Shown piece by piece: positions 6,766 through 63,046 of a DNA stretch of 64,000 nucleotides. Each line of letters starts with the position of its first letter. Within the stretch, counting starts at the first letter, position 1. The notes below the pieces were generated by a model. It was given only the letters and a program-made list of their open reading frames with translations. It was not told the origin of the DNA and did not search any database. The position numbers and the translations under genes were made by a program. This DNA comes from Blasia pusilla (Eukaryota): NCBI GenBank assembly GCA_050084515.1, contig CM114271.1, forward strand, positions 25,606,001 to 25,670,000, written 5' to 3'.

Positions 6766-8782
6766 CATCAATCTTACTCAACTCTAATTAGAACATAGAT
6801 AAATATTCCAAGACTATTCATTATCTGTGCTAGGATGCGGCTTCACTACTCATCAAAAGTATCACCCTTTATTTATTCGAGCTCCACCAATGAATATATA
6901 CGATATACCACATATTCTTAGTTGCTTACGAGTTGGTGCCCGTGCGAGGCACTAATTTATAAGTTTGAATTACCCATCTTAAATGTACGATTGAATTCAC
7001 GCGATCCTATTGGTTTAGACAACAAGCAATTATATTGGCTAAAAAATGAATGTGTTAAAAGGAGAGGTGATCTCAAAATGAATAGGCACTCTTCAATAAT
7101 ATAATAGGTGAACTATGCTCACCGCTTACTGACCACATCCCACGATCATATACTCTGGTCAGTATTGCATGTAGTAATGCTCATGCATTCTCGATCCTAC
7201 TATTTGTCCGGTCCAACCATCTATATTATTGAAAGAGGTTGGGACTTGAGGAACCCCTCCTCTGCCGTCAACATGTATGCTTTCTGCACTCCTCCCGTAT
7301 TGACATGTTTATTGTTCGACGGAAGAACGAACAAGAGGAGCTCAAATCTAAAAGATTTAACGAACATGTTTCCCGTAGGATGATTTTTTCACCCGTGCAT
7401 AGCGTAAGGGCGGATGCTAGTAGATTTTGTGACCATTCACCGTTTAAACCATTCATTATTATGGACCGCACGCTTGTTCTTGCTGGGAAATGAATGGGAA
7501 ATGAATGGCAAATGGGTGAAATTCGGATGCGGTGAACGTGGGGCGGCGAATGCAAAACGTGGAAAGCTAGGAACGGAAAGAGGAAAAATCAGTTAACTTG
7601 CCAGACGGAAATCCATCGCGGCAGTAGACGGCGCAGAAGTAGGGGCAGAAGAAAACCAGACCGGATGGGACCTGACCGGCGAGCGACATACAAAGCGAGA
7701 CTAGCGAGTGCGCTCTGTGTGGGAAACGCGGGCAGCGGCGGGAGGGTCGCGGGCAGAGCTAGAAGAGCATGCATGGATAAGCAAAGTCGATGGACATGGG
7801 AGGAAACTGCACAAACCGGGCGAAGAGAGGCCGAGAGCGGGTGCCATCAGGAGGGGCAGCGGAGAAGTGCGGCGTGTGCTGCGGATCTCGCAAACCACGG
7901 CCAGGGATTGGGTGGGAGAGGGCTCGTGCAGGCGGGCAGCGGCGAAAAAGGGCGGATCCGCATCCTCTTCGGGTTCCCGTTGAGGTGCGGGTGCCCACCT
8001 CCCCTCTGTCCACCCGTTCCGAATCGCACGGGCTCCAAGGAGAGGGACGGGCCCCGGCGGGACTAGGCGCGGGTGGAGTTGATGGACCGGCGAAGCGCCA
8101 ATTGAAGGGGAGGGTGCTTAGCAATTGTTCTCTTCCTTCTGCTTTCTGGCCTCGCGAGAAGGCAGGCAGCTCGGCATCCCGTGTTGCTATCCGCCTTGTA
8201 CCTCTCTCTCTTTGTTGGGGCGGAAGTAGGAGCAGGCAGCAGTAGCTCGTGGGATTCCTAGGCTTAGATTGGGACAGGGAACAGTCCGCTGGTTCTGGAT
8301 CGAGAAAGAATCGAAGAGGGAAAAAAATCGGGAGAGATTTTCTCGAGTGTTGCTGTGGCGTGGGAATGCACGTGATGCTGGTTCGTTCGTGAGCGATGGG
8401 AGGGAAGGAGTGATTGATTGATTCACTGATGCGGTTGGTGGTTGCGGGTGGGCGAGCGAGTGAGCGAGGTCGATTAGATCTGGTGTATCCATTTCGCGTG
8501 CGAAGGTGCATCTTTTTGGATCGAAGGAACAGACGTTCCGTGGGGAAGGATTCGAATTCGTTGTTCTTGGGGGAAGGACTGTTTTGCATTTTTTTTGGGG
8601 TGAAGTAGTTTGCTGTTGGGGATCGTGTGATCTGTTTGCGATCTTGGAGGATCGGAGGGAGTCCAGGTGTGAGAATAATTGGTGATTTGTGACAAGGGGA
8701 AGGCCCCTTGCAGCACGGCAGAATCGGATTCTGAGAAAGGAACAGGCCTGAGGCCGTGTGAGGGGAGAGCAGAGGATCGAGA

Positions 8783-11700
8783 ATGAGCAGCATAGGATCT
8801 GCTGCGAATGGAGCAGCTCTGGGACCTGGGGGGAAACGGCAAGGACAAGCGTCGACTCCGAAGCGGCCTGGGGTGGCAAGAAAAAAGCCTCCGTCTGAAA
8901 GTGGCGGGGTTAGAAAGACGGGCGGGGCGGGCAGACCTCTGTATGACTCTTGTCCCTTTTACTGGAAATCAAATTGAGTTTGTTGTTGTGGAGGCTAGTA
9001 TCAAGGGTTTTGGCTTACGATGGTAGTAAAGTTTTGTCGTGCTCTCAATTTGCTGTGAAAGTACCGGATCTATACAGCATGAGATCCTGCGGAAAGAATT
9101 GCGAAACAAATATCTTTGAATGACGCTCAAACTCACTAGTCGCCATAGGCAGTTGAGAATTGGGAGTGAATTGGCTCTCTTGCCCCAAATTCATGGATGA
9201 GAAAGTGCAGCTTATCTAATGTATGGTTTGCTGGTCTGGTTCACGTTTGAGCGTGTAGGTCATAGAACCCTCTCTTCGCCTGGGAGCGGAAGAATGTGGT
9301 CGCATGGAAATATTTAATATTTTGCCTCACTCTGAAATTGTGGATGTACGCATATCTAGGCATATCGACGAGGCAGTTTTATAAATACAGACACCCGGAA
9401 TCTTGAGAATCTTGATGTCATGAGTTCTCTCGTCCATACCGCAGTACACTGTCTACTGTGGCAGGAAAATGTCAAACGATTATCCGCTTAGGTAATGCAG
9501 TACCGTCTTGTGCATTCTTAGAATGTGCACACCGGTTGGAAGACTAGAGAACTTATGCTCTCTCACTATAGGTTTCTTCTAGCGTAGACTGCGAACAGTG
9601 GTAAGAAAGTAGGAAGGGCACCGGTATCCGTAGTCAAATAAGTATGACGTAGGTGGAATTAGTTTCAAGCAAATCCCGAAAAGTGCTGAAAGTTTCGAGT
9701 CACTTTGTTAGGATTCACATTGTTGTCAAATACCTATGGTACTGTTTGTGGGAAGCTTCTTGACTGGCAACACAAAGGATGTTGCGATAGCATGAAAGCT
9801 GGGCTGGCTGGTAGGTTTTGAATTCGAATTTATCATGTGTGCAGCCTTTGCTGGCATCTCCATTGATTGAAGACGTGATGCTATTTCGGTACAAAGGATG
9901 TAGATTTGCAGCTTTGAGAAGCTCAATAATGGACAGTTATTGTTTCAAGCTCTACAATATTTTTTGAGATTCCAATGCCCTGTTTCTCTTTACCAAACAG
10001 AACCTCTCCAGGGGAGCGAACTGTCAAAAGATTGCGGCTGTCAAAGGCCCTCACCATTCCTGATGGCACAACAGTTGCAGATGCTTGTCGCCGCATGGCC
10101 ACCCGAAGGGTGGATGCTGCCCTTCTCACTGATGCTAGTGCATTACTCTGTGGAATCATCACTGACAAGGTGACAGATCGGTTGGGTCTCTGACGGCTAT
10201 ATCTGGTTGTGTGACTTTATGGCAGTGTGGATGTTTTCCTGTTTCTGTTTCTTCAGTATGATTTCTACACTTCAGGTGAGGTGAGAGCCACTTTTCTTGA
10301 CAGCTTTTTGCACCTCTCAGGTCAGTCCAATTGTGTTGTGTAGGATGTGGCTACAAGGGTTATAGCTGAAGGTCTGAAACCTGAAGAGACATCTGTGTCA
10401 AAAGTTATGACACGGAATCCAATTTTTGTGATGGGAGATACTTTGGCTGTAGACGCCCTACAGAAGATGGTTCAAGGTGAGTGGTCCAATGTAGAACGCT
10501 GATAGTACGTTTGAGTGATTAGCTTTCTATTATCAAGATGAATTGCACGAATATGAGGCAATATGAAATAGGGTTGGACTGGAGGCCATATAAGTTGCAG
10601 GCCCTTATTTATGTGCGCTATGGTTCTTCCCTATGGATGTGGGAGCCTATCAAGACTCTGGTATTGGTGGTTGTTCTAGTAGATTATTGTGCAACTGTGC
10701 CGTTTGGGTTTGGCTGCATGCATCAAAGCAATTCGACGTATAGGTGACTAAATACTGCAATATGCAGGCAAATTTCGGCATCTTCCTGTTGTTGAGAACG
10801 GTGAAGTAGTTGCCCTCCTGGACATCACCAAGTGCCTGTATGATGCAATTGCACGCATGGAGAGGGCAGCTGAGAAAGGCAATGCTATAGCTGCAGCTGT
10901 GGAGGGTGTTGAACGCCAATGGGGAAGTGGTGTCAATGGTGGGTTTTAGAGAGACCTGCAGAACTTGTGGATGGCTTTCTCGTCTTTTATTGAGATTCAG
11001 AATTGCTCATTATTATAGAGAGCCAATGTTCACAAAGATAATCATGGAAGAGTTGATGTTGAAGAATTTGTTGTTATCTCTGCATCTGCTCTGATAACTG
11101 TATTTTCTGTCAAGCAGCTCCATCCAATTTTATTGAAACATTGCGTGAGCGAATGTTTCGACCGACTTTAGGCTCTCTGCTTACTGAAGGAACCAAGTAG
11201 GTTTTTTCTTTGCTTTGTTTCTTTTTGCATTCCCTACAAGAATTGGTGCATTGAAGGAGTCTAAATTGGCTAAAAACAGTTGCAGATACATCTGGAACAA
11301 CAGGTGCTTAAACCATAAACATGTGCTGGGTGCAGGAGTTAAGTTTGCTTGCTCACATTCAAGTGAACTTAATTTTCTATTTCTTTTGACAGGGTTGCAA
11401 CAGTCGGTCTTTCTGACACAGTATACACTGCAACCAAGAAGATGCGCGATCTGCGGGTTAATTCAGTGGTAATCACAACAAACAGCAAGCCTCAGGGCAT
11501 TCTCACGTATGGATTTCATCCGCAACTCGTGTTTTCAGACGAACAAGAACCTTTATTCTCAGTCAGCAGAAGTAATTTACATTTTCTCCCCATTTTGAGC
11601 AGGCCAGCAAGGAGAGATGAGAGAAACCTTGATGGTCATGTAACATGCCTCTGTGTACTTGTTTGTGAACTCCACAGCTCAAAAGATGTGTTGATGCGAG

Positions 11701-14104
11701 TTGTTGCACAGGGTCTACCACCTGACACTACACCAGTGGAGAAGGTATGTTCCAATGTCTTACTAGGTGATAGATTGGAACCGGTCGATGGTGTTGTACT
11801 GAAAGGAATTGGTAATTTACTGTGGAATTTGTTAGGTTTACCTTACTAGACACTGTTTGCAGTGAGAAAGTTTTTGGTCACTTACTCACAAACTATTGCG
11901 GATGTAGGTGATGACCCCAAATCCGGAATGCGCTTCACTTGACACGACCATTGTAGATGCACTGCATACAATGCACGATGGCAAATTTTTGCATCTTCCA
12001 GTGGTGGATCGAGGTCAGTATTTGTCTCATTTGTTGAAGTGAAGACTTGTCACTACCTGGCCCCCATACTAATTTTTTATTCCTGGCATGCAGATGGTCT
12101 TGTTGTGGCATGTGTTGACGTTCTGCAGCTCACGCATGGAGCTGTTGCAACAGTATGTCTTTCTGAAACAAAGATGCACCCAACATTGAATGTGTGTGAT
12201 GTATTACAATCTGCGAAATCCTTTTTAAGTGAACACTAGATTAGTCAAATTTTTGTTATATCTGAAAAAATATAACTAAGTAGAGAAAACTAACTGTCTC
12301 AAAATATATCAACCTGAATTGCATTTTTCAGTCAAGTTGCATGGTTGATGTTTCATTGATGACCATGCTTTGAGATCATAATGATATGCAGGGTTTCTTT
12401 TTCTTCATAACCTCTGAGGTTACGTTTCCTCAGAGTACTAAAAATCTGAGTTGTGTGTGAAGGTGGGCAGCAATCAAAACGGTTCTGGTGATGTTGGTGG
12501 TACTATGCTACAGAAGTTTTGGGATTCAGCCTTGGCTTTAGAGCCGCCGGAAGATGATGATGATACTCACAGGTAATTTGCAAGTTTGAATTGATACAAC
12601 TGTTCGGGGAATGTTTGACAGCGCTTTTTTGTTGGGTCTCTTCAGTCAATGCAAAGTTTTCATGTGCCAGTTGAGTTTATTTACTCAGAATATGTGGAAC
12701 AGAGAAGGGAAGCTGTACGGTCAAGAGAAGATTTTTCTGAGGTGTAATTCTGGATGAGAAGGCTTCATGGCATGCACTTCTAGAAGGAAGATTTAAAGAA
12801 TTTCAATACTGAAGGTTCTCCCCCTCTTTTAATGTGATTGTAGTGTGACTGCCAGTGATATATCCGCAAGGCATGCAGCTTCAGATGTCTATGGCTCAGA
12901 AGCTGGTGGTGGACGGCAAAGTTACCCATCCCTTGGGATGGGAAATACTTTTTCTTTCAAGCTGGAGGATCGGAAAGGCCGTGTTCATCGTTTTAATTGT
13001 GGTAAAGTTTGATTGACTCTTCAAGCTATGACATGTTCTGATTAGTAGCTGTGTTGATTTAATCTGGAACATGCCATCGCAAGTTCTTACCTCTTACCTC
13101 CCAGGCAGGCAGGAGTGATTCAAAAGTATATTCAAAATTATATTATGTTATTTCCTTATTTAGAACTGGACAGGTAGATGTGTTCTAGTGTTTCTGAGGT
13201 ATGGACCTGGTTATTGTTCCTGACTAAAACAGGGACAGAGAGTCTTACAGAGCTGATTTCGGCCATAGTACAGCGTGTAGGTGACGATGTGGATGTGACT
13301 CAACTTCCTCACATCATGGTAGGCTATGGGGAGTGCTCTTACCCTGCTTTTCTGGATTGAACAATGTGGTTGGATGGTGTGCATCACCATCAGAGAGAAG
13401 TAATATATCCATCTGCAGAATGAAGATGTGATCTCTAGCTCATGTGGGGGTGACATTTCCTCATCATTTGTTAGTTTTTGCTTTGAAGCCATGCCAGATT
13501 TTTTTGGGGCCTGATGCTAGCCTGTTGATGATGTTGGATCAATCAATAAACTTTTTGTCTGGACTTCTGCAGTATGAAGATGATGAGGGGGATCGAGTAC
13601 TGTTGGGAAGCGATAGTGATCTAGTTGCGGCAGTGAACTTTGCACGGGTATCTGGCTGGAAGGTTAGTTTAGCACTGTCATTTCATTTCAAAAGTGAGTT
13701 CTTTGTAGTTAAAATAGCTCGTATGGTTGGAGTCTTGTCCATGGAGGTTTCACGTCCGTAATCGATTCGTAAATCATCCATTGATAATGTCTTAAAATTA
13801 CTAGGGATGGTTACATAAGACTATGTTGGATATCAGAGTAAACATCTATTTTTTTCTTTCTGATAGTATTTTCTTGCAGGGTTTGAGACTCTTCTTGGAC
13901 TACACGCACCTGCAGACTCTGCGCACTGTAACACAAAAAGTTCCCAAAGGACCTCCCAGAATTGAACACCGTAACTCTGAGCCAGTACATGTGGAAAACG
14001 AGAGCAGCTGGCTAACACCGGTTCATGTTCAGACAGCTATTGTGGCAGCCACAGTTGTAGTTGTTGGTATTTCTCTTGCAGTGTACCTGAAAAGGTCTAA
14101 CTAG
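8783..14104 (+). CDS. CBSCBSPB: CBS-domain / PB1-domain tail-anchored protein (CBSCBSPB family), isoform with last exon A
   Basis: GT-AG exons in consistent phase: 8783-8940, 10001-10169, 10344-10476, 10768-10938, 11118-11196, 11393-11506, 11678-11744, 11908-12013, 12094-12152, 12463-12572, 12844(or 12856)-13001, 13233-13318, 13573-13662, 13880-14104. Motifs: GERTVKRLRLSKALTIPDGTTVADACRRM, GKFRHLPVVENGEV, PB1 FSFKLEDRKGRVHRF...YEDDEGDRVLL, and a C-terminal hydrophobic helix. Confidence 0.95.
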
Positions 14105-14117
14105 ATTTTTGTTGCAG

Positions 14118-14315
14118 GGTCTAAGACTTTATCTGGACCTTCACCACTTTGCACCAAAAAAATTCCGCAAAGGTGTGATAGTGTACTCACGTGAAGAAAA
14201 TTGGAATCTAAAGCATGCAGCTGCAGCGGCAGCAGTTGCACTACCTGTTATGGGTCTTATTGTATATCTGTGGAAGTCTAAAGCAGACATGCCTCCACCC
14301 AAATGGGGTAAGTGA
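14118..14315 (+). CDS. CBSCBSPB: Alternative (duplicated) terminal exon B of the CBSCBSPB gene
   Basis: TTTTTGTTGCAG acceptor, phase 0 like exon A. Starts GLRLYLD (exon A: GLRLFLD), has its own hydrophobic segment AAAAAAVALPVMGLIVYLW and a stop at 14315. Confidence 0.75.
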   Translation, partial: GLRLYLDLHHFAPKKFRKGVIVYSREENWNLKHAAAAAAVALPVMGLIVYLWKSKADMPPPKWGK

Positions 14316-16899
14316 TCATGTCACATTTGTACTGGATCCACATGATGAGTTTTAGCAGATAACACAGTTATTGTTCAGTACCCGTTGAACTGGTCCTGAT
14401 AACTTATCCTAATTCAAGCAAGATGTCGTTCTGCTTTGACTCACACATATCTGATTATGTGCGATTTGGTGATTTCCTGGGTTGAGTTGACAAGCAAAAG
14501 CAGGGCACTGTATTCTTTGCCATAATTACAATACAACTCATCAGTAATCTATCTCCTTGTGAAGAGATTGTTTGCTTGAAGTTTATTGACTGGACAACTT
14601 TTTGTACATACAAGGTGAGCATATGAGAAAGGAGTCGGCATAATGTCATTGTTGGTGGAAGGGACTCATTTTAAGCCCGTTTTGTGCAAGTAAGTGTCCC
14701 GAATGGATGTCGGATTTTGACTGTAGAGTAAGTCTCATGAGACTCTGGATGGCATAGGTGGCATCTAGACACAGAGAAAATTATCTGAAGTGGGAGGAAC
14801 TGAAATGCCAGGTTTTTGTCACAGTATATAAGAACATTAGGCTACATCTGTGTGTAAGCATCGATCCTACAGGTGCATGTGGAAATCTGGCACAGCAGGT
14901 AACAACAAAGCCTGTGGATAAGGACGCCTCCTGCATATAGCTATTGGCCTTGATGGCACAAATCTTGAAGCCCTGACCACCCACCATTGAATTAAGTACC
15001 AGTGACAAACAGTAGTTATCTTAGGCAGCCAACCACTATCAAGAAGAGAGAGAATTTACAGTAGAGAGGGCACTCGGGATGAAGAATCATTTGGAGTTTG
15101 GGTGCTGGAGAATACTATATTTTCTGAAGTTAACTGTATACTCAAGTGAAATTGTGGAAATGTCCTCATCAAATCTTTAGGAAATTTTGAACTTTTGATG
15201 ACCTCCCTCCTTATCAAACTCGGCGTTTGGATTGCCAGAGTAGTTTTGAAGCCAAACAAAATCTGACATCTGGTGAAATTGCGTGGTATTATGTTGTCTC
15301 CCATGTCTGGAAGAGTGTAAGTGGCCTATACTTCTATATCGGGAGCTACGTAGGACATCCACTCTCAACCTCACGAGTAATTACTGAAGCACTCAACTAA
15401 ATAGACGACATTCAATCCACACTCTCTCACTAAGACGTGTGTTGTGCGGCAACAAGTGGCGTGGTGCAGAAAATATACTATTGTCTTATCATTTCATCGA
15501 CAAGACATATCTTCAACTCTGGGGAATTGTGGGTATTGGGCAGTTATTTGGGATATTGGGTTTTGTGAAGATGTTGAGAGCATCGTTGATGTATGGGTTT
15601 AGGGAACACAATATCTTCAGAGTTTTATATCAACAAAAAATTTCTTTGAATTTTTTCAACTCGATGACTTTTACAGGTCGATCGGCGGGAGGGTTGTGTT
15701 CCATTTAAAGTCCGGACTCTCTCAGCGCTACTGTCCAGGATAAACATCTGTCTATTTAACCTGTTTTGCGCTTTGTCCATAACTCGAGAAAGGCCACACA
15801 AAAAGGATTTAGGATTTACGGAAAGAGAACTTTATATGAAAAGATCAAATGATCTTGTACACATGTTCGATAAAGGGTTTTGCATAATGCCACTCATGTG
15901 AAGAGTAAGGGTTAGGATAGGCCAATCATACGAACTTCCCGGATGTTGAGTAACGTCAAAATTGCCTCCTTATCCTAATAAGTAATCACCTTAACATTGG
16001 AGAGGTGAGCCGCAAGAAGCAAAACCAAGTGCGGAGCAAAGACGGAAGTATACGACCTTTCTCTAGGTAAAGGAAAAGTAAATCCGGATCAAAGACGGAA
16101 GTAATGGAAGGGTTAGGGTTAAGTAAAGTGATATGAAGGGAACAAATTTACATTGAAGAATAGCAGAAAGTTACCTCTACATACTGCGGTGTCACATTTC
16201 GATTTGTTTTGCCGTCCCGATCAGAAGTGGATTGAAAAAAAGGTGCGGAATCTTTATATCAAAATAAATTGGGCAACACATTTGTCCACTTTTTTAATCC
16301 AATTTTTATGTTACTAGGCTAAGCAGTAAGAAGTCTTTCAAAAGGTTACGCAAGCACTTTCTAGATTTTCAGTGTGAAGGAGAGGCCAATCTTTAGAAGA
16401 AAAGACTCTAAAGTTTATTGAAGCTTTATTTTTAAAGTATCCTCGATCTTTCAATTACAATATGGGTAAAATTAGAAATGATGGAATCATCGTATACACC
16501 ACATGCAATGTATGGACTCATCTTATTTCTTTTGCACTAGAGGTAATGTTACATTTCACCCTTCCTAGGTATGGAAAACATGCAATTCACTTAAAAATTA
16601 CTTTCCATCCATACTAGTCCCTACTTCCTCATTGCACTATAGATCAATTTAGTGTCAAACTTTCATGAAAACGTCAATGCATGGATTGATGGACTATTAG
16701 ACTAATGTCCAAGTCTCCCACCTTTTGACATGATAGAATAAGGAATAAGATCTAATATGGAACAATCATAAAGAAGCCTCTTGACTTGCATATGTGTATC
16801 TCTTTCCTTGCCATAACATAATCGGATTGATTGATACATGAATACATAATACAAAATGATTAATAATGGACTAGGATGAGTTCACATTCGCCTAATAAC

Positions 16900-28369: not shown

Positions 28370-29900
28370 GTTTTGGATGAGACTTCTACAATTTGTAATG
28401 CCAACCTAGCCCCAAAGTTGAGCTCTATTTGTCGAGACTTTGTGAAGCGTCTATTACGTGTGAGTATATCTCCTCACCGCATTTTGAAAATGCTTACAAA
28501 GTGGATCAAAGATTGTATGGAAGACAACAATTTTAGAAAGAACACTCTAGCAAGAGATGCCTTACTCACACATCAAGATAGTCTAAACATTAAGAATGCA
28601 ACGAGAAGATGATAAGACAAATACGATGGGATAGTTGATGCTTTAGTGGTTTAGATGTGGATTCAGAGACACCTGGATGATGTGTTGTTTTAAAAATACT
28701 TTGACTCTATCAATAATAAACCATTTGCTTTGTATTCTTAATATGGTGGATGCTATAGAATTTGGTTTGATTTGGAAACCATGGTGCCATAAGCATGGAT
28801 GTCATCCATTGAACCAACACGTACAAGGTGAGTTGCATACAAAACTTCATTCCTCTATATACTCCTTTCTTTAATCTCACATGTTCTGCTCACTACATGT
28901 GTAGTTGAACATAATATTTTTGTAGTGTTACTTCGGTTCTCCAAACAAATGGTATTCTCCTTCTCATTCATAATACTATGTTCCTGCACGTATAGAGGCG
29001 AAACAGACTCAGGTCAAAAATGTCATATTAAACTAACTTTTTTTTATCTCTTGTATGAAAGTATCAATTGTTAACCTTACTTGGTTTTGACTCATTCCAA
29101 AATGGTCTACCTATGGTTTGGGCAATTCTCCAACGCTAAGACATTTTGGAAGTTCTCACGAGCATTAAAGTTCGAGTGGAAGTTGTGACTTTAGTTGTTG
29201 GACAAGAGAGTAGATGATTCCAAGGAAGAATAATCTGGCATTAGGGAAGTATTCCCAGAATTTCCTATCCATCTATGTAAATAGCAAGTGAAAAAGACTT
29301 GACTAAGTCAACTCCATCAATGTATTATGTGTCCAATCACTAAAGCACAAATGAATGAAGATCTTGGCAAAGTCATGTTCATCCGCAATGGTGGTATGTG
29401 TATGTGTAACCACTAACCACTGGCCCATTTACCTTCCTACCTACAAACATTGCATTCTAGTGTACACTACATATCTTTTAGGTAACAAAGTTGGCAGGTT
29501 TATTGCAGATCTAGCCCATGATCCTATTAAGTTCATCCAGAAATATGCAAATTCAAATCTGAGCTTTTTAAAAGATTATTGGCATCGCAAATTTTCCAAA
29601 TGGGCAAAGGGCTATCACAACAAAGCCAAATTGGTCCAAGATACAAATGCACAATTACAAAGGTTGTATGCCACCTTGAAAACGATCTTTGCGCAAGGAA
29701 GCCGTGGAAGGATGCTTGATCCATTATTTGGCTACTATCCATTGTAACAAATGAAATTGAAGACTTTTCTTGGTATATGGCCCTCTTTTAATTCCAAGGC
29801 TAGGGTTCAGAACAAGGACATTCACAAAGTAATGACCATGGCCATAAAGAATGCAAAACCCATTCATGATGAACACGTTGTGTTTGAAAATCACGAAGGT
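28370..29900 (+). mobile_element. Decayed Mutator-like (MULE) transposase
   Basis: LTLLGFDSFQNGLPMVWAIL (~29071), DDSKEE*SGIREVFPEFPIHLCK*QVKKT* (~29213; MULE D...VFP...LC.WH motif) and WAKGY...QDTNAQLQRLYATLK. Multiple stops; TIRs not found. Confidence 0.8.
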
Positions 29901-43852: not shown

Positions 43853-46800
43853 TAGAGAGGTTGTGGCCCGATGATTGATAGATTTGGATGGGTGGTTCCT
43901 CCAATCGATCATGGATGCTCACCGGTGCTTCATGCATCATCACCCCCTCCCGAGGCATGGGAGTGGTTGAGGTCCCACCTTGGCAGCATCACAGGTCTCT
44001 TTGAGGCCCGTTTTCCCTGCCCGAGGTTGTTTCATAGGATCCCCCATGCTATTCGGGACGAGCTTCGCCATTCTTTCCTCCTGCCCTTATCTAGGATCGT
44101 GCTTGATCCTATGGATGAGCTCTCGTGGTATCTACTACTTCTCCTTCCACGATGGTGTCTTCGCTATACCCGAGGAAGGAAGGCCGGCCATAGAGAGGTT
44201 GTGGCCCGATTGCGGCGCTTACGAGGAGGTGATTGGGAGTCTCTACAGAGCGAGTTCGTGGCATATGCCAGAGGTAGCACTCCACGTGGTTGTGGCTGCC
44301 AGATTGGGACGATGTAGGACACTTAGGAGAGCCGGGGAGTACTCGCGAGCAGCTCGTGCGCTCCGCCCTATGGATATGGCTCCTCCTTCCAGTGTTACCA
44401 TCGACGCCCTCCGGAGGCTACACCCTCGTCCAACGGTTGACATCCCAGCATTTGTATGTAACTTCCATCCTGACACGACCTTATGCCTAGATCCGTCCCT
44501 CTTTGCACGGGCACTCGGGCATTTCCCTAGGATAGCAGCTGGAGGGTTGTCCGGTATGATGTACGAACACCTTCGTGATTGCTTTCCCCCCGAGGACTCT
44601 GCTAGCGGCTTTTCCGAGTTGCTTCAGGTTGCCTCTCACCTAGCTCAGGGGAGAGTGCCAACAGCAGTAGCCCAGGTTTTGGGGGCGGGGCGACTTTTGG
44701 CGTTATCGAAGGAGGGTGAAGGGATCCATCCGATTGCCATAGGGGAGGTGCTCTTGCGGATGGTGAGTCTCACTATCGCTTTGCAGTTCCGTGAGGCTTT
44801 CCAGTCACATCTGAGTCCGTACCAGTTTGGAGTTGCCACGCCAGCCGGTTGTGAGGCTGTAGCCTTAGGTTTGAGGGCTTGTTTAGACATACATCCCGAG
44901 TGGGTGGTTCTCCAAGTTGATGTGGAGAACGCCTTTAAGTCAGTGTCTCGAGCAGCTATCTTCACGGAGTTGAGAGACACAGAGGGTCCCATAACGAGTC
45001 TGATTCCCTTCGTGCATGCTTTTTATGGGGCTCCCTCGGCACTCTATTTTCACCACGGTAGGTTCGAGGAGGAGATCACGGTCTTAGAGTCTGCTACCGG
45101 GACGCATCAGGGTGATCCCTTGGGGGTGCATTGTTTGTCTTGGCTCATTATCGAGCGGTTCTTTCTACGGTGGAGGCTTTCCCGGGTTGCATTTTCCCTT
45201 CGTTGGCAGATGATACTCATATTGTTGGCCCTAGAGACTTGGTTGTTCCTGCATTTCAACACTTCTCAACACAGTTGGCACATGTTGGCCTTGCGATGAA
45301 GGTGGGAAAGTGCAAGGCTTGGTCTTCATTAGGCTTGTCAACGGATATTCATTTACCCGATGGTTTTTTGACACCTGCTGGAGGGCTTCGTGTTTTGGGA
45401 GTTCCACTCGGGAGCGAGGACTTTGAATCGAGTTTTGTGGCGGCGGCTCTTACCGAGGATCTTCTCCACGTCGACGATCCCACGAGGATTGGTGACCCTC
45501 AAGTAGCTTATGGAATCCTCTCGTCATGTTTTGCCCGTAGACCTGGTTATCTGTGTAGAACTGTGTGGGCGACTAGCCATATTTCTTCCTTGTATAGATC
45601 CTTTGATAGAAAGATTATGCAGGTGTTTGGGGATCTTCTAGGACCCGGCTCATTAGAGTGCCCCGCGGGGGAGCTAGCTCATAGACAGGCTTCTTGGCCG
45701 ATTTCCTTTGGTGGAGTAGGTCTCATAGCGACTAAGTTAGTGGCGTCTTTAGCCTTTTTAGGGAGTTGGGCCACTATAGCACCCCTCTTTTGCTCCCGAT
45801 TTTTGGTTAGGGATAGACCGCTACTTTTACAGTACGTTTCCCAAGTTGAGGATGGTCTTTTCCCACTTCAGTCTTCACTTACAGCTTGTAGAGACTCCCT
45901 TGTTGTTGAGGCTAGAGCAGTTCTTCCCACTTTCTCTTCCCTAGTTTCCTCCGGACAGTCGGGGCTCCAATCTTCTTTGATGGAAGCCCACTTTGATGCA
46001 TTTTTAGAGCTACTATGTCGGACGGGAATATCCCCATGGAGGTTCAGGCCCGTATTCGCTCTTGCTCCGAAAAGGGGGCAGGCTCATGGGTGGGGGCTCG
46101 TCCCCTCATCTCGGCTTTCCGCATCGCACCACTTCCCTACACTACAGCGATGAGGTTCCGACTAGGCCTGCCCCAACCAACAATGGTTGGTTCGACACAT
46201 TGCGAGTGTCGCCGGAGTCTGGATCCACTTGGTGTGCATTTGGCACGGTGTCCAGTTGGGGGTGAGAGGATAGCCACTCACGATGCAGTGTAGGATATTA
46301 TGTTCTCTATTGCTCGGGAGAGTGGATTCCATGTACAGAGAGAGAGGCACTACTCCATGCGGGATTCCCTTATCCGTGCTGATCTCTACATGACGAGGGA
46401 GGCTGAGGTGGTGGTAGCGGATGTTGTAGTGACGGATCCTACGCGGGAGGCGGTGCGAGCCCAAGTGGTAGCACAAGGGAGATTGCTACAAGGAGCGGCG
46501 GCGGCGGCGGTCAAGAAGACCCACATTTACAGTCGATTTCATGACGGACATCGATTTATCCCCCTAGCCATTGAGATGTACGGGGCGATGGGAGAGAGGT
46601 TTGACTCGTTCCTTACGGATTGCGCCCATCATCTCCAGTCGAGAAATGGGTTGTCCTTAGCCACTGCGATACTTTATTGTAGGCAACGGGTCTCCATAGC
46701 TTTGCAGCGCGCCCAGGCAAATGGGCTTCTGCGACAGGATCAGGCGGTTGGAGACGCCAATGCTAGAGGCCCACTTAGTAGTAGTCATAGTTCTGTAGGT

Positions 46801-46990
46801 ATTATTGATATTGTTTCCGCTGTTGGTGATCGTTAGGTGGAAGGCCCCCTTCTTTATGCTTGGGGCCGATTCTGGCCTCTTGAGGTCTTCCTTTTTGGCT
46901 CTCTTTGCCCCCTCATTTGTATCGTGATGGGTTCCCATCCTTTTTTTATACATATTTTATATTTCTCTAGTTTGCCTCTCCATCAAATAA
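43853..46990 (+). mobile_element. 5'-truncated non-LTR retrotransposon with RT plus C-terminal restriction-like endonuclease (CRE-like clade)
   Basis: Frameshifted single ORF 43871-46836 (shifts ~44290, ~45125, ~46000; stop 46291). RT: HPIAIGE, QFGVATPAGCE, DVENAFKSVSR, QGDPLG, SLADD, VLGVPLG. Zinc knuckle: CEC...D..GVHLARC..GGERIATHDAV. REL: RADL...ADVVVTDP...KK..Y...FIPLAIEMYG...QRVSIALQR. Confidence 0.9.
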
Positions 46991-48319
46991 GTTTCTAAAA
47001 ACCCATTGGGTATATATATGTGGACTATTTTTTATGGTGGCGCCTGATGCGGTGCAGCTGACTTTCCGAGACGAAAGAGTGTGAACTACAGCCACCTTCC
47101 GTCGTCAGCTGCGCGGCCTTCGGAGAAAACGAGAGGGAGACGGAGAAGGAGAGGGAGAGGGAGAGGGAGATTAGACGGGAGAATTATGGGATGGGAAGAT
47201 GATAAAGTGGTAATGCATGGGAAGTGAAGGACCGGGAGCAGCTGTCAAAGGAATGGGATTCTGATCAATGGAAGAATAAATTGGTGAGAATTTCAATTGA
47301 TCCCGGAGTGGTGTAAAAATTTGCGTCTGTCCGGTTAATTCATGGGGAAGAATTCGATTCAAAAATGTTCCCTGTCCTTGTGCATCTACTGTGCAGGAGT
47401 CTCGAGGTCACACACTTCGATCCTCATTTCCGATCCGCGTCTCTCTCCTTCAGTTCTTGCAGACCATGCTTTGCTCCTTCATGTCCGCTCTGTCCGTCTC
47501 CGGGCCATGTAGGAAATCGTTCCCTCGCCGACTTCGCTACTATTGCATAGATTTTGTGCGGTTCTCTTCCAACTAGTCTCAACAAATTGAATGAAGAGAG
47601 AAGCCTATTCCGCTTCGCTCGCCGCTACTAACGGAGTCTCGGTTGATTTCCTTTTCTTTAGCTACTTAATGTTGATTGAGAGAGGAGAAGTGGAGTCCAA
47701 TGCTTGGGCGGTCTCCTGTTTTAGACCGTATGGTGCACCGTGAGGCTCATTCCTTATCGTACAGTTGCTTCCGGATGGAACTCGGGCATGTGGATTAGGA
47801 CTGCTCCGAGCAACAACGGAGGCACTCTTCAACTGGAGTTTCCAGAGTGTTCTGCTGCTGATAATTCCTTCGGCAACATTGCGCATTGCATGACAATTAG
47901 GACGCGGATCGCCTCTTTTTGCCCGAGTTGATGATCTTGTATTGCCAGGGGATGTAATTGTCAAGTTCGAACTCTTTGGAGATGAGCCACCCGCACTCTC
48001 GGTACTGAGAAGGCTGTGAGGAGCTCAGTGGGACAATAGTGAGGTTGATGTATTGCAGCTCAATGCGTCCGAATTTAATTTGACTCTGTCCTTTCGACGT
48101 CTTTTTTTGGGGGTCCGTGCTCGAGTTGGAGAGAGAATCGGCTACAGTGAGTGCAGGCCTTGCGACAGCTCGTGCGCTCAATGCAATACGTTTCTTAGGC
48201 TCGGATTCAGTCCCAAGCTGAGTCCAGCTGCCGGAATTTTACGTTTCTAAACCCAGAGTGTAACTTGGGGGGTTCTTGACGTTAGAAATCCTCCATCCGC
48301 TGTCCAGAGTCGTTGTATT

Positions 48320-62100: not shown

Positions 62101-62624
62101 AGATGGATCCTAGGTGGCATTGTTGGTAATATCCTAGGTTGATGTGGCATATTTAGTCCTAGGTGGCTTGCTGCGTCAAAGCGGGCATGGGAGGGAATGG
62201 ACACCCGTATAGCATACAAACGTTTGGTGTTTGGTGCCCAAGTAAGGTGTGTTGTGTTTGGCGGGAGAGAGTGTGCACTCGAGTGGGATGGTTGGAGTTT
62301 CTCCAAGAGTGGGAAGTTCAAAGATTAGGGGATTGGGGAGGTCAGGAGGCTGAGAACAATTTGTTGTGAACGTTGTGAAGACTTTTACGCCTAGACCGCA
62401 AGCTCCGAGTTTCTTCTGAAGACTCTGCTCTCTGAAGATTGTTTCATCTTCTTAGCCGCGGTTAGCTCTCTCTCTCTGTGCCTTTGCGATGTTCTCTCTC
62501 TCTTTGCGCAACATCTGGAAGAGCCTTGCAAAATGACGTTCAACTTCTTCTCGGACTTCAAAGATCGCTCCACTCTGCAATGTTGTCTTGCTATTGACCC
62601 GAGTATGTCCGAATAGCTTGGTGG

Positions 62625-63046
62625 CTCCGAAGGTTGAAACTTCCTACGATGTACCGGTGTTGAAACTAGACCTACACTTTGTCGCACGCGCTCTTCATCT
62701 ACAAACCACTCATCGTTCACTTTGCTGACACTCCAGTTGAAGTATCGCAGGAGAATACCAGCTTCAGTCCTTGATAGGGAAAGGAAATTTGTGATTTTGG
62801 TCATCGCTTCTTCTTGTCGCTGGCGAATGTCCCTCTCATTGAGAATTGTGTAATTGGACTGAGGAAGCCTAGAACTCACATGAACGTCAAGTAAAGGGAA
62901 TCATCGAAACCGTAGTCCGGCTCATCATCGTCATCATCACTGCCCATGGTATTCTCACTCGCCTTGTCGTCCTCTTCATTCATATCATAGAAGTCCCCGT
63001 CTGATGTTCCATACCAAGCATCCTGCATTTCATCTTCGGAGTCCAT
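62625..63046 (-). pseudogene. ARI: 5' fragment of an ARIADNE RBR E3 ligase (ARI7/ARI8-like), frameshifted, intronless, truncated before RING1
   Basis: MDSEDEMQDA...DFY...DDEPDYGF, frameshift ~62890, then QSNYTILNERDIRQRQEE...LLRYFNWSVSKVNDEWFVDEERVRQSVGL. No RING follows. Confidence 0.88.

Follow-up and report, generated by a model that had tools for sequence, protein, structure and literature searches.

The stretch analyzed here is a 64-kb window of the genome of the liverwort Blasia pusilla (64,000 nucleotides of contig CM114271.1, positions 25,606,001 to 25,670,000), numbered from its first base. Its forward strand carries a CBS-PB1 gene whose terminal exon occurs in two tandem copies, called exon A and exon B below, each of which encodes the last strand of the PB1 domain, a transmembrane domain (TMD) and a C-terminal tail. 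We modelled the gene by tblastn with the Marchantia paleacea protein P0004 (Mapa_003936) followed by a splice-junction fit, which resolved 14 coding exons between 8783 and 14104 on the + strand, with the ATG at 8783, the stop codon at 14102–14104, GT-AG borders at every intron and no internal stops; the window is plant nuclear DNA. The product that ends in exon A (the A-tail product) has 575 aa and is 93.7% identical to P0004 over 568 aligned residues and 87.3% identical to Riccia sorocarpa P0005, values that point to a Marchantia-like liverwort. A tblastn search with the orthologue found no second copy of the gene in the window. The features at the locus are the following.

8783–8940, 10001–10169, 10344–10476, 10768–10938, 11115–11196, 11393–11506 and 11678–11744, + strand: coding exons 1–7 (tblastn and junction fit).
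11908–12013, 12094–12152, 12463–12572, 12844–13001, 13233–13318, 13573–13662 and 13880–14104, + strand: coding exons 8–14 (tblastn and junction fit).
13573–13662, + strand: exon 13, with the PB1 domain as far as ...ARVSGWK (Pfam PB1), followed from 13663 by the phase-0 donor AAG/GTTAGT.
13860–13879, + strand: 3′ end of intron 13 before exon A, with CTGAT (CTRAY, branch-point-like) at 13860–13864, a U-rich tract and TTGCAG.
13880–14104, + strand: exon A, the canonical terminal exon, with GLRLFLD (PB1 strand beta5), a linker, the TMD TAIVAATVVVVGISLAVYL, the tail KRSN and the stop TAG (translation, homologues, hydropathy).
14097–14117, + strand: splice signals of exon B, CTAAC at 14097–14101 and then ATTTTTGTTGCAG (U-rich tract and acceptor AG at 14116–14117).
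14118–14315, + strand: exon B, the diverged tandem copy, in which beta5 (GLRLYLD) and a short linker lead to the TMD AAAAAAVALPVMGLIVYLW and then to the tail KSKADMPPPKWGK of 13 aa, closed by TGA (translation, hidden Markov model, hydropathy).

By its domains and its orthology, the encoded sequence is that of a member of the plant CBSCBSPB family (CBS-CBS-PB1). Pfam CBS matches were obtained on five separate exon translations, one at 30.6 bits (cut-off 24) and the rest, from exon fragments, at 13–22 bits; the orthologue P0004 contains four CBS stretches (113.6 bits). Pfam PB1 matched the exon-13 translation at 29.8 bits (cut-off 23.6). A full-length search returned 1628 relatives with E ≤ 1e-30, and the window gene with exon A is 55–89% identical to the land-plant members among the matches listed. 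The known members (Arabidopsis CBSCBSPB1-5, rice OsCBSCBSPB1-4) have the same four CBS motifs, the PB1 domain and a C-terminal helix ending in YL[KR][KR]S. The promoter, the 5′ untranslated region (UTR) and the first exon of the gene overlap a GC-rich, stop-poor stretch (7536–8958) with long open reading frames (ORFs) in several frames of both strands (up to 399 aa, − strand), which is likely a compositional effect and not a set of genes.

A first-pass annotation of this DNA had described, after a phase-0 donor at 13662, two tandem open exons that each follow a TTGCAG and start with GLRLFLD or GLRLYLD. We reproduced the donor, the coordinates and the sequences of both exons, each in frame with that donor: exon A reads GLRLFLD...TAIVAATVVVVGISLAVYLKRSN and exon B GLRLYLD...AAAAAAVALPVMGLIVYLWKSKADMPPPKWGK, each up to its stop, with 13 nt separating the stop of A from the first base of B. 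The same annotation had noted strongly diverged middles with intact frames and two different hydrophobic helices and tails, and these points also stood, since A and B align at 38% protein identity with a divergent linker and an open frame in B, and their helices and tails differ in hydropathy (2.37 against 2.04) and in length (4 against 13 aa). Taken alone, a pairwise BLASTP comparison of the two exons is weak evidence, with an alignment limited to the first 11 residues (E = 0.002). At the DNA level, a 37-nt direct repeat with a spacing of 238 nt and 76% identity comprises, in both copies, the last 16 bases of the intron and the first 21 bases of the exon; because it spans the intron end and the exon start, the duplicated unit included the 3′ end of the intron. 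Judged by their sequences, exons A and B are true tandem duplicates.

The splice signals of exon B overlap the coding sequence of exon A. CTAAC at 14097–14101 lies within the Ser-Asn-stop codons of exon A (TCT AAC TAG), as had been claimed, with its branch A 17 nt upstream of the final base of the intron; across the two acceptors this distance is 16–17 nt. Any CTRAY within 60 nt was found at 5 of 14 acceptors (the 13 of the gene plus that of exon B). The overlap of CTAAC with coding sequence follows largely from the conserved Ser-Asn-stop codons. The earlier proposal that choice of the distal acceptor delivers exon B proved to be the sole route that places B in frame. Read-through of the A stop was rejected because the frame of B is shifted by +1 from that of A (14118 − 13880 = 238); it would also add a second strand and a second TMD. 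An A-to-B splice was rejected because the A stop lies just 13 nt from B. With both excluded, joining the 13662 donor to the 14118 acceptor is what remains. We found no convincing competing RNA structure for the choice between acceptors, just 11–12-nt imperfect inverted repeats, and none of the poly(A) hexamers AATAAA, ATTAAA, AATAAT, AATGAA, TATAAA or AGTAAA in 14001–15600. Two further splice-like sequences were observed. A third acceptor-like sequence, TTCTCTTGCAG/TG at 14071–14084, lies in the TMD codons of exon A (repeat family D2) and, if used with the 13662 donor, would lead to a stop after two codons. A donor-like G/GTAAGT at 14308–14313 coincides with the end of the exon B reading frame, its final codons and stop, and could mark a 3′-UTR intron or a further junction.

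Next to the splice signals, the domain structure constrains what either exon has to encode. Pfam PB1 covers residues 425–508 of the orthologue P0004, including GLRLFLD at 502–508, which are the first seven residues of the last exon. The AlphaFold2 model of P0004 (33-sequence alignment; mean predicted local distance difference test, pLDDT, of 72) has a beta-alpha-beta PB1 fold (pLDDT ~90) with its last strand at 503–508 (pLDDT ~93), a disordered segment at 518–547 and a helix at 549–573 that reaches the C-terminus. In PMC7051960, the beta5 motif G-x-L-x-L-x-L is described as specific to CBS-associated PB1 domains. Since GLRL[FY]LD is the last PB1 beta-strand, whichever exon is used must supply it, and either one completes the fold.

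To place both tails within the family we took the last 90 residues of 125 proteins, including 120 full-length relatives among the matches listed. P0003, P0006 and P0007 were dropped as non-family, P0008, P0028, P0124 and P0105 for truncated, fused or aberrant C-termini, and P0062, P0080 and P0085 because the regular expression for the start motif missed them despite canonical-looking tails; 113 family tails remained, to be compared with A and B. Essentially all 113, which come from land plants, end in a TMD and a YL[KR][KR]S tail. Every one of them has a hydrophobic segment near the end, with a Kyte-Doolittle hydropathy over 19 residues (KD19) of 1.65–2.60, and none has a proline in the TMD. 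The tail after the TMD is 5 aa long in 93, 4 aa in 9 and at least 9 aa in 3. Exon A conforms to this pattern: its identity across liverworts is 80%, 65% and 56%, the first two values being those for the M. paleacea and Riccia proteins, both of which end in ...VYLKRSN. On these sequence grounds, exon A is the ancestral, canonical, family-wide tail.

The same comparison bears on the membrane topology of the family. The A-tail product reaches its KD19 of 2.37 at residues 553–571 of 575, and its best segment elsewhere (1.71) lies inside a folded CBS domain; no window within its first 40 residues is hydrophobic (best KD19 −0.03), and the orthologue model shows this part as disordered. With one C-terminal TMD and no hydrophobic N-terminus, the CBSCBSPB family looks tail-anchored. 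A term search for 'transmembrane' gave no match in the family papers PMC2694836, PMC5817877 and PMC7051960, and we found no literature linking tail anchoring with this family in a search of main texts; a search of the literature on tail-anchor splicing in Marchantia found nothing on this gene. Rice OsCBSCBSPB4 was reported as nuclear and cytoplasmic with green fluorescent protein (GFP) on its C-terminus (PMC5817877). As a C-terminal GFP would mask a tail anchor, the published localisation of OsCBSCBSPB4 may not reflect the native protein.

Exon B is homologous to the same tails. It aligns with them end to end, from lycophytes to angiosperms, at 30–38% identity, its best match being Diphasiastrum P0010 (37.7% over 61 columns), and A is not among its 25 best matches. 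It retains the strand, the Trp just before the TMD, an Ala-rich beginning of the TMD, VYL, and basic residues with a Ser after them. What has diverged is mainly the linker that joins the strand to the TMD, a segment that also varies across the family. Against a family-tail hidden Markov model built from the 113 tails without A or B, exon B scored 23.2 bits, a value that none of 1000 shuffles reached (maximum 4.6). Without its first seven residues it still scored 14.4 bits, again above all of 1000 block-preserving shuffles (maximum 10.7). The three tails with at least 9 aa after the TMD all belong to Diphasiastrum complanatum: P0010 (07G114300), P0026 (18G060400) and P0032 (09G083800), with 12, 9 and 14 aa. 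Two of the three share a basic-x-[TG]-D-[IL] start with the K-A-D-M of exon B, and one ends in HWG, compared with KWGK in B. Going by these sequences, the likeness could be chance or could mark an old long-tail anchor type. Under the two-membrane reading considered below, which we hold unlikely, such an anchor may be old and would have been retained by an alternative exon in liverworts and by separate genes in lycophytes, with the Diphasiastrum paralogues as the nearest counterparts.

Exon B also shows how it has diverged from exon A. Over 55 aligned codons the proportions of synonymous (pS) and nonsynonymous (pN) differences are 0.62 and 0.41, and over the first 11 codons 0.96 and 0.26; four of the first seven codons differ synonymously only. 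Synonymous sites are thus near saturation with pN below pS, which indicates that the duplication is old and that replacement changes have been filtered. This comparison of A with B, the sole source of the estimate, supports a signature of past purifying selection on exon B.

We propose that a tandem duplication with a period of 238 nt copied the last exon of a CBSCBSPB-type gene, and that the duplicated unit would have brought along the last ~16–20 intron bases with the branch-point-like CTRAY, the U-rich tract and the AG. The upstream copy A would have remained the ancestral anchor (TMD plus KRSN) and the source of the major, annotated protein, and the downstream copy B would have persisted as an alternative last exon that can be translated. 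Joining of the 13662 donor to the distal acceptor (14117/14118) would remove exon A within a 455-nt intron and give the protein an Ala-rich, Pro-containing, less hydrophobic anchor whose tail has 13 residues and a charge of +3; with the proximal acceptor, exon B would be 3′ UTR. One and the same cytosolic CBS-PB1 module would then reach different membranes, or behave differently at the membrane, depending on its anchor. We give this full account, from the duplication to the retention of B and its splicing as an alternative anchor, a probability of about 0.5. Its narrower core, that selection maintains or once maintained exon B as a translatable alternative to the usual last exon, has in view of its sequence an even or slightly better than even chance. 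Present-day splicing of B and a difference between the anchors in membrane destination or behaviour are what we infer.

Several observations weigh against this account and suit a different one, in which exon B is a non-functional duplication relic in the 3′ UTR of the A-type mRNA, spliced never or negligibly, with a frame that is residual or from which selection has ceased. The annotated liverwort orthologues that we found (M. paleacea, Riccia sorocarpa and Calypogeia fissa) all carry A-type tails. The proximal acceptor appears to be the stronger one: the U-rich fraction of its tract is 0.59 at A against 0.45 at B, so exon A is the expected default, and since acceptor A is also reached first, use of exon B would need regulated skipping. 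A phmmer search of exon B against 1.84 billion representatives found no B-type protein; two matches (E ~2e-5) were rejected as hydrophobic or low-complexity repeats in unrelated proteins. A word-indexed search of a 5.8-billion set, confined to proteins longer than the query, likewise gave none, with 0 of 68 candidates at E ≤ 1. These database negatives are weak, as the A-type protein of the window did not turn up in our searches either and a B isoform would hide in a 50% identity cluster. The proline in the TMD, the atypically long tail and the low GC content at third codon positions (0.32 in exon B against 0.40–0.44 in the other exons, with intron GC at 0.40, in a sample too small to decide coding status) fit the relic as well; the proline and the low third-position GC are compatible with relaxed constraint, and selection on exon B may have acted only in the past and perhaps ended recently.

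What speaks against the relic is the state of the exon. A neutral copy at a pS of 0.62 (0.96 in the strand segment) should have lost its frame, TMD and strand, and most of the divergence of exon B instead lies in the linker that varies family-wide, with the acceptor, the U-rich tract and the CTRAY preserved. In a neutral-decay simulation of 5000 copies, run from exon A to the observed p-distance of 0.46, an open frame was kept in 250 copies, a TMD-like segment in 325 and at least six of the seven strand residues in 13, and the three together in none (0/5000); the protein-guided alignment and the assignment of all change to the B branch count on the side of the relic here. The simulation omits indels, which makes the test conservative. 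We regard the relic as the strongest competitor of the alternative-exon account and, at the same time, as rather unlikely.

If exon B is used, the question becomes whether the two anchors differ in destination. They compare as follows.

TMD hydropathy (KD19): exon A 2.37; exon B 2.04.
Proline in the TMD: exon A no; exon B yes.
Tail after the TMD: exon A KRSN, 4 aa, charge +2; exon B KSKADMPPPKWGK, 13 aa, charge +3.

Its long tail distinguishes exon B from 110 of the 113 family tails, and its TMD proline sets it apart from all 113. Published work connects the sorting of tail-anchored proteins with how hydrophobic the TMD is and with the length and charge of the tail that follows it (PMC2712456 and PMC4154396). 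For the plant outer mitochondrial membrane (OMM), Marty et al. (2014, PMC4154396) give a dibasic motif with a tail of 3–8 residues after the TMD. Coded in simplified form, as two basic residues, a tail of 3–8 aa and no Glu directly after, this motif fits the KRSN of exon A and 108 of the 113 family tails but not exon B, whose 13-aa tail falls outside. A term search of the main text of PMC4154396 returned no CBSCBSPB locus (At5g63490, 0 matches; the five Arabidopsis locus codes absent).

By analogy with these systems, sorting of the A and B isoforms to different membranes is plausible, if on balance unlikely. The first-pass annotation had suggested such retargeting for an adenylate-binding protein, and adenylate binding would likewise be a putative property here. 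It is also, in our view, unlikely that a regulated choice of terminal exon distributes a CBS-PB1 sensor or scaffold between two organelle membranes; in one example of such a distribution, the KRSN anchor might lead to the outer membrane of mitochondria or plastids and the long, Pro-containing anchor to the endoplasmic reticulum (ER). A less eventful outcome would be that exon B is used and the anchors are equivalent, both serving the same membrane, so that the choice is splicing noise or tunes abundance or turnover. The KD19 of exon B equals the family median and lies within 1.65–2.60, exon B retains a YL-basic-basic-like juxtamembrane pattern (K-S-K), and both anchors of the animal protein SLMAP are reported to reach the ER, one of them additionally the mitochondria (PMC2712456). 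However, a tail of 13 instead of 4 aa and a proline in the TMD are outliers among the 113 family tails, the published plant motif restricts the tail to 3–8 residues (PMC4154396), and a redundant exon is not expected to persist long, all of which makes equivalent anchors quite improbable.

Lastly, it is very improbable that exon B is internal, with the consensus-like G/GTAAGT over its last codons acting as the donor to a downstream exon and a longer C-terminus that is not tail-anchored, since an in-frame stop follows directly, no tail among the 113 runs more than 14 residues past the TMD, and tblastn of the orthologue found no further coding match downstream in the window (chance matches, E > 3).

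Tandem exon duplication can give rise to mutually exclusive exons, which are adjacent, homologous and of the same phase and enter the mature coding sequence one at a time. Classical pairs of this kind are internal, whereas the pair described here is terminal, with two acceptors 238 nt apart and a shared 3′ end. A closer likeness is found in SLMAP, whose alternatively spliced anchors TA1 and TA2 differ in hydrophobicity, the less hydrophobic one adding mitochondrial targeting (PMC2712456). In both cases one gene has two C-terminal anchors of unlike hydrophobicity, B being the less hydrophobic here. SLMAP differs in being an unrelated protein from another kingdom, whose alternative anchor use and localisation are established by experiment, whereas here both are predictions; moreover, the anchors described here arose by tandem duplication and bring a domain strand with them. 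In Arabidopsis YUCCA4, according to PMC6941117, splicing decides whether a C-terminal TMD is present and hence the ER location, which is a choice between an anchor and none, as opposed to the choice between two homologous anchors proposed here. Within the CBSCBSPB family, none of the 113 tails and no database protein that we found has a second, B-type tail. Alternative tail anchors (SLMAP), anchors gained or lost through splicing (YUCCA4) and alternative exons from tandem duplication are thus already known. Particular to this locus is the duplication of a terminal exon with its own branch-point-like site and acceptor, re-encoding a domain strand together with an anchor.

CBSCBSPB proteins, which are found across the land plants, have been associated with stress tolerance. 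Two of the results lend themselves to direct testing: the apparent tail anchoring of the family, with a canonical tail that fits the plant OMM motif, and the second, apparently selectively retained anchor exon in one liverwort gene. Should exon B be in use, the gene would offer a natural experiment on how TMD and tail sort plant tail-anchored proteins, with an identical cytosolic module on two anchors, and it would show how a terminal exon that is duplicated together with a branch point and an acceptor turns into a switch for alternative splicing. If the two-membrane reading were true, the locus would be the first in plants at which tandem-duplicated exons swap an anchor, and a handle on the cell biology of the CBSCBSPB family. 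If exon B is unused, the locus is an ordinary exon-duplication relic.

Away from the CBS-PB1 gene, three further regions of the window gave protein-domain matches. At 29355–29747 (+) there is a weak, sub-threshold match to adenylosuccinate synthetase (18.7 bits, cut-off 27). A long ORF at 43971–45299 (+) matches Pfam RVT_1 (30.1 bits) within a GC-rich block at ~44000–48000 (51–53% against ~41% elsewhere) and is probably a retroelement insertion. An exon-sized ORF at 62391–62900 (−) matches the ARIH1-type UBA-like domain at 29.8 bits, above the cut-off, which suggests an Ariadne-type E3 ligase gene.

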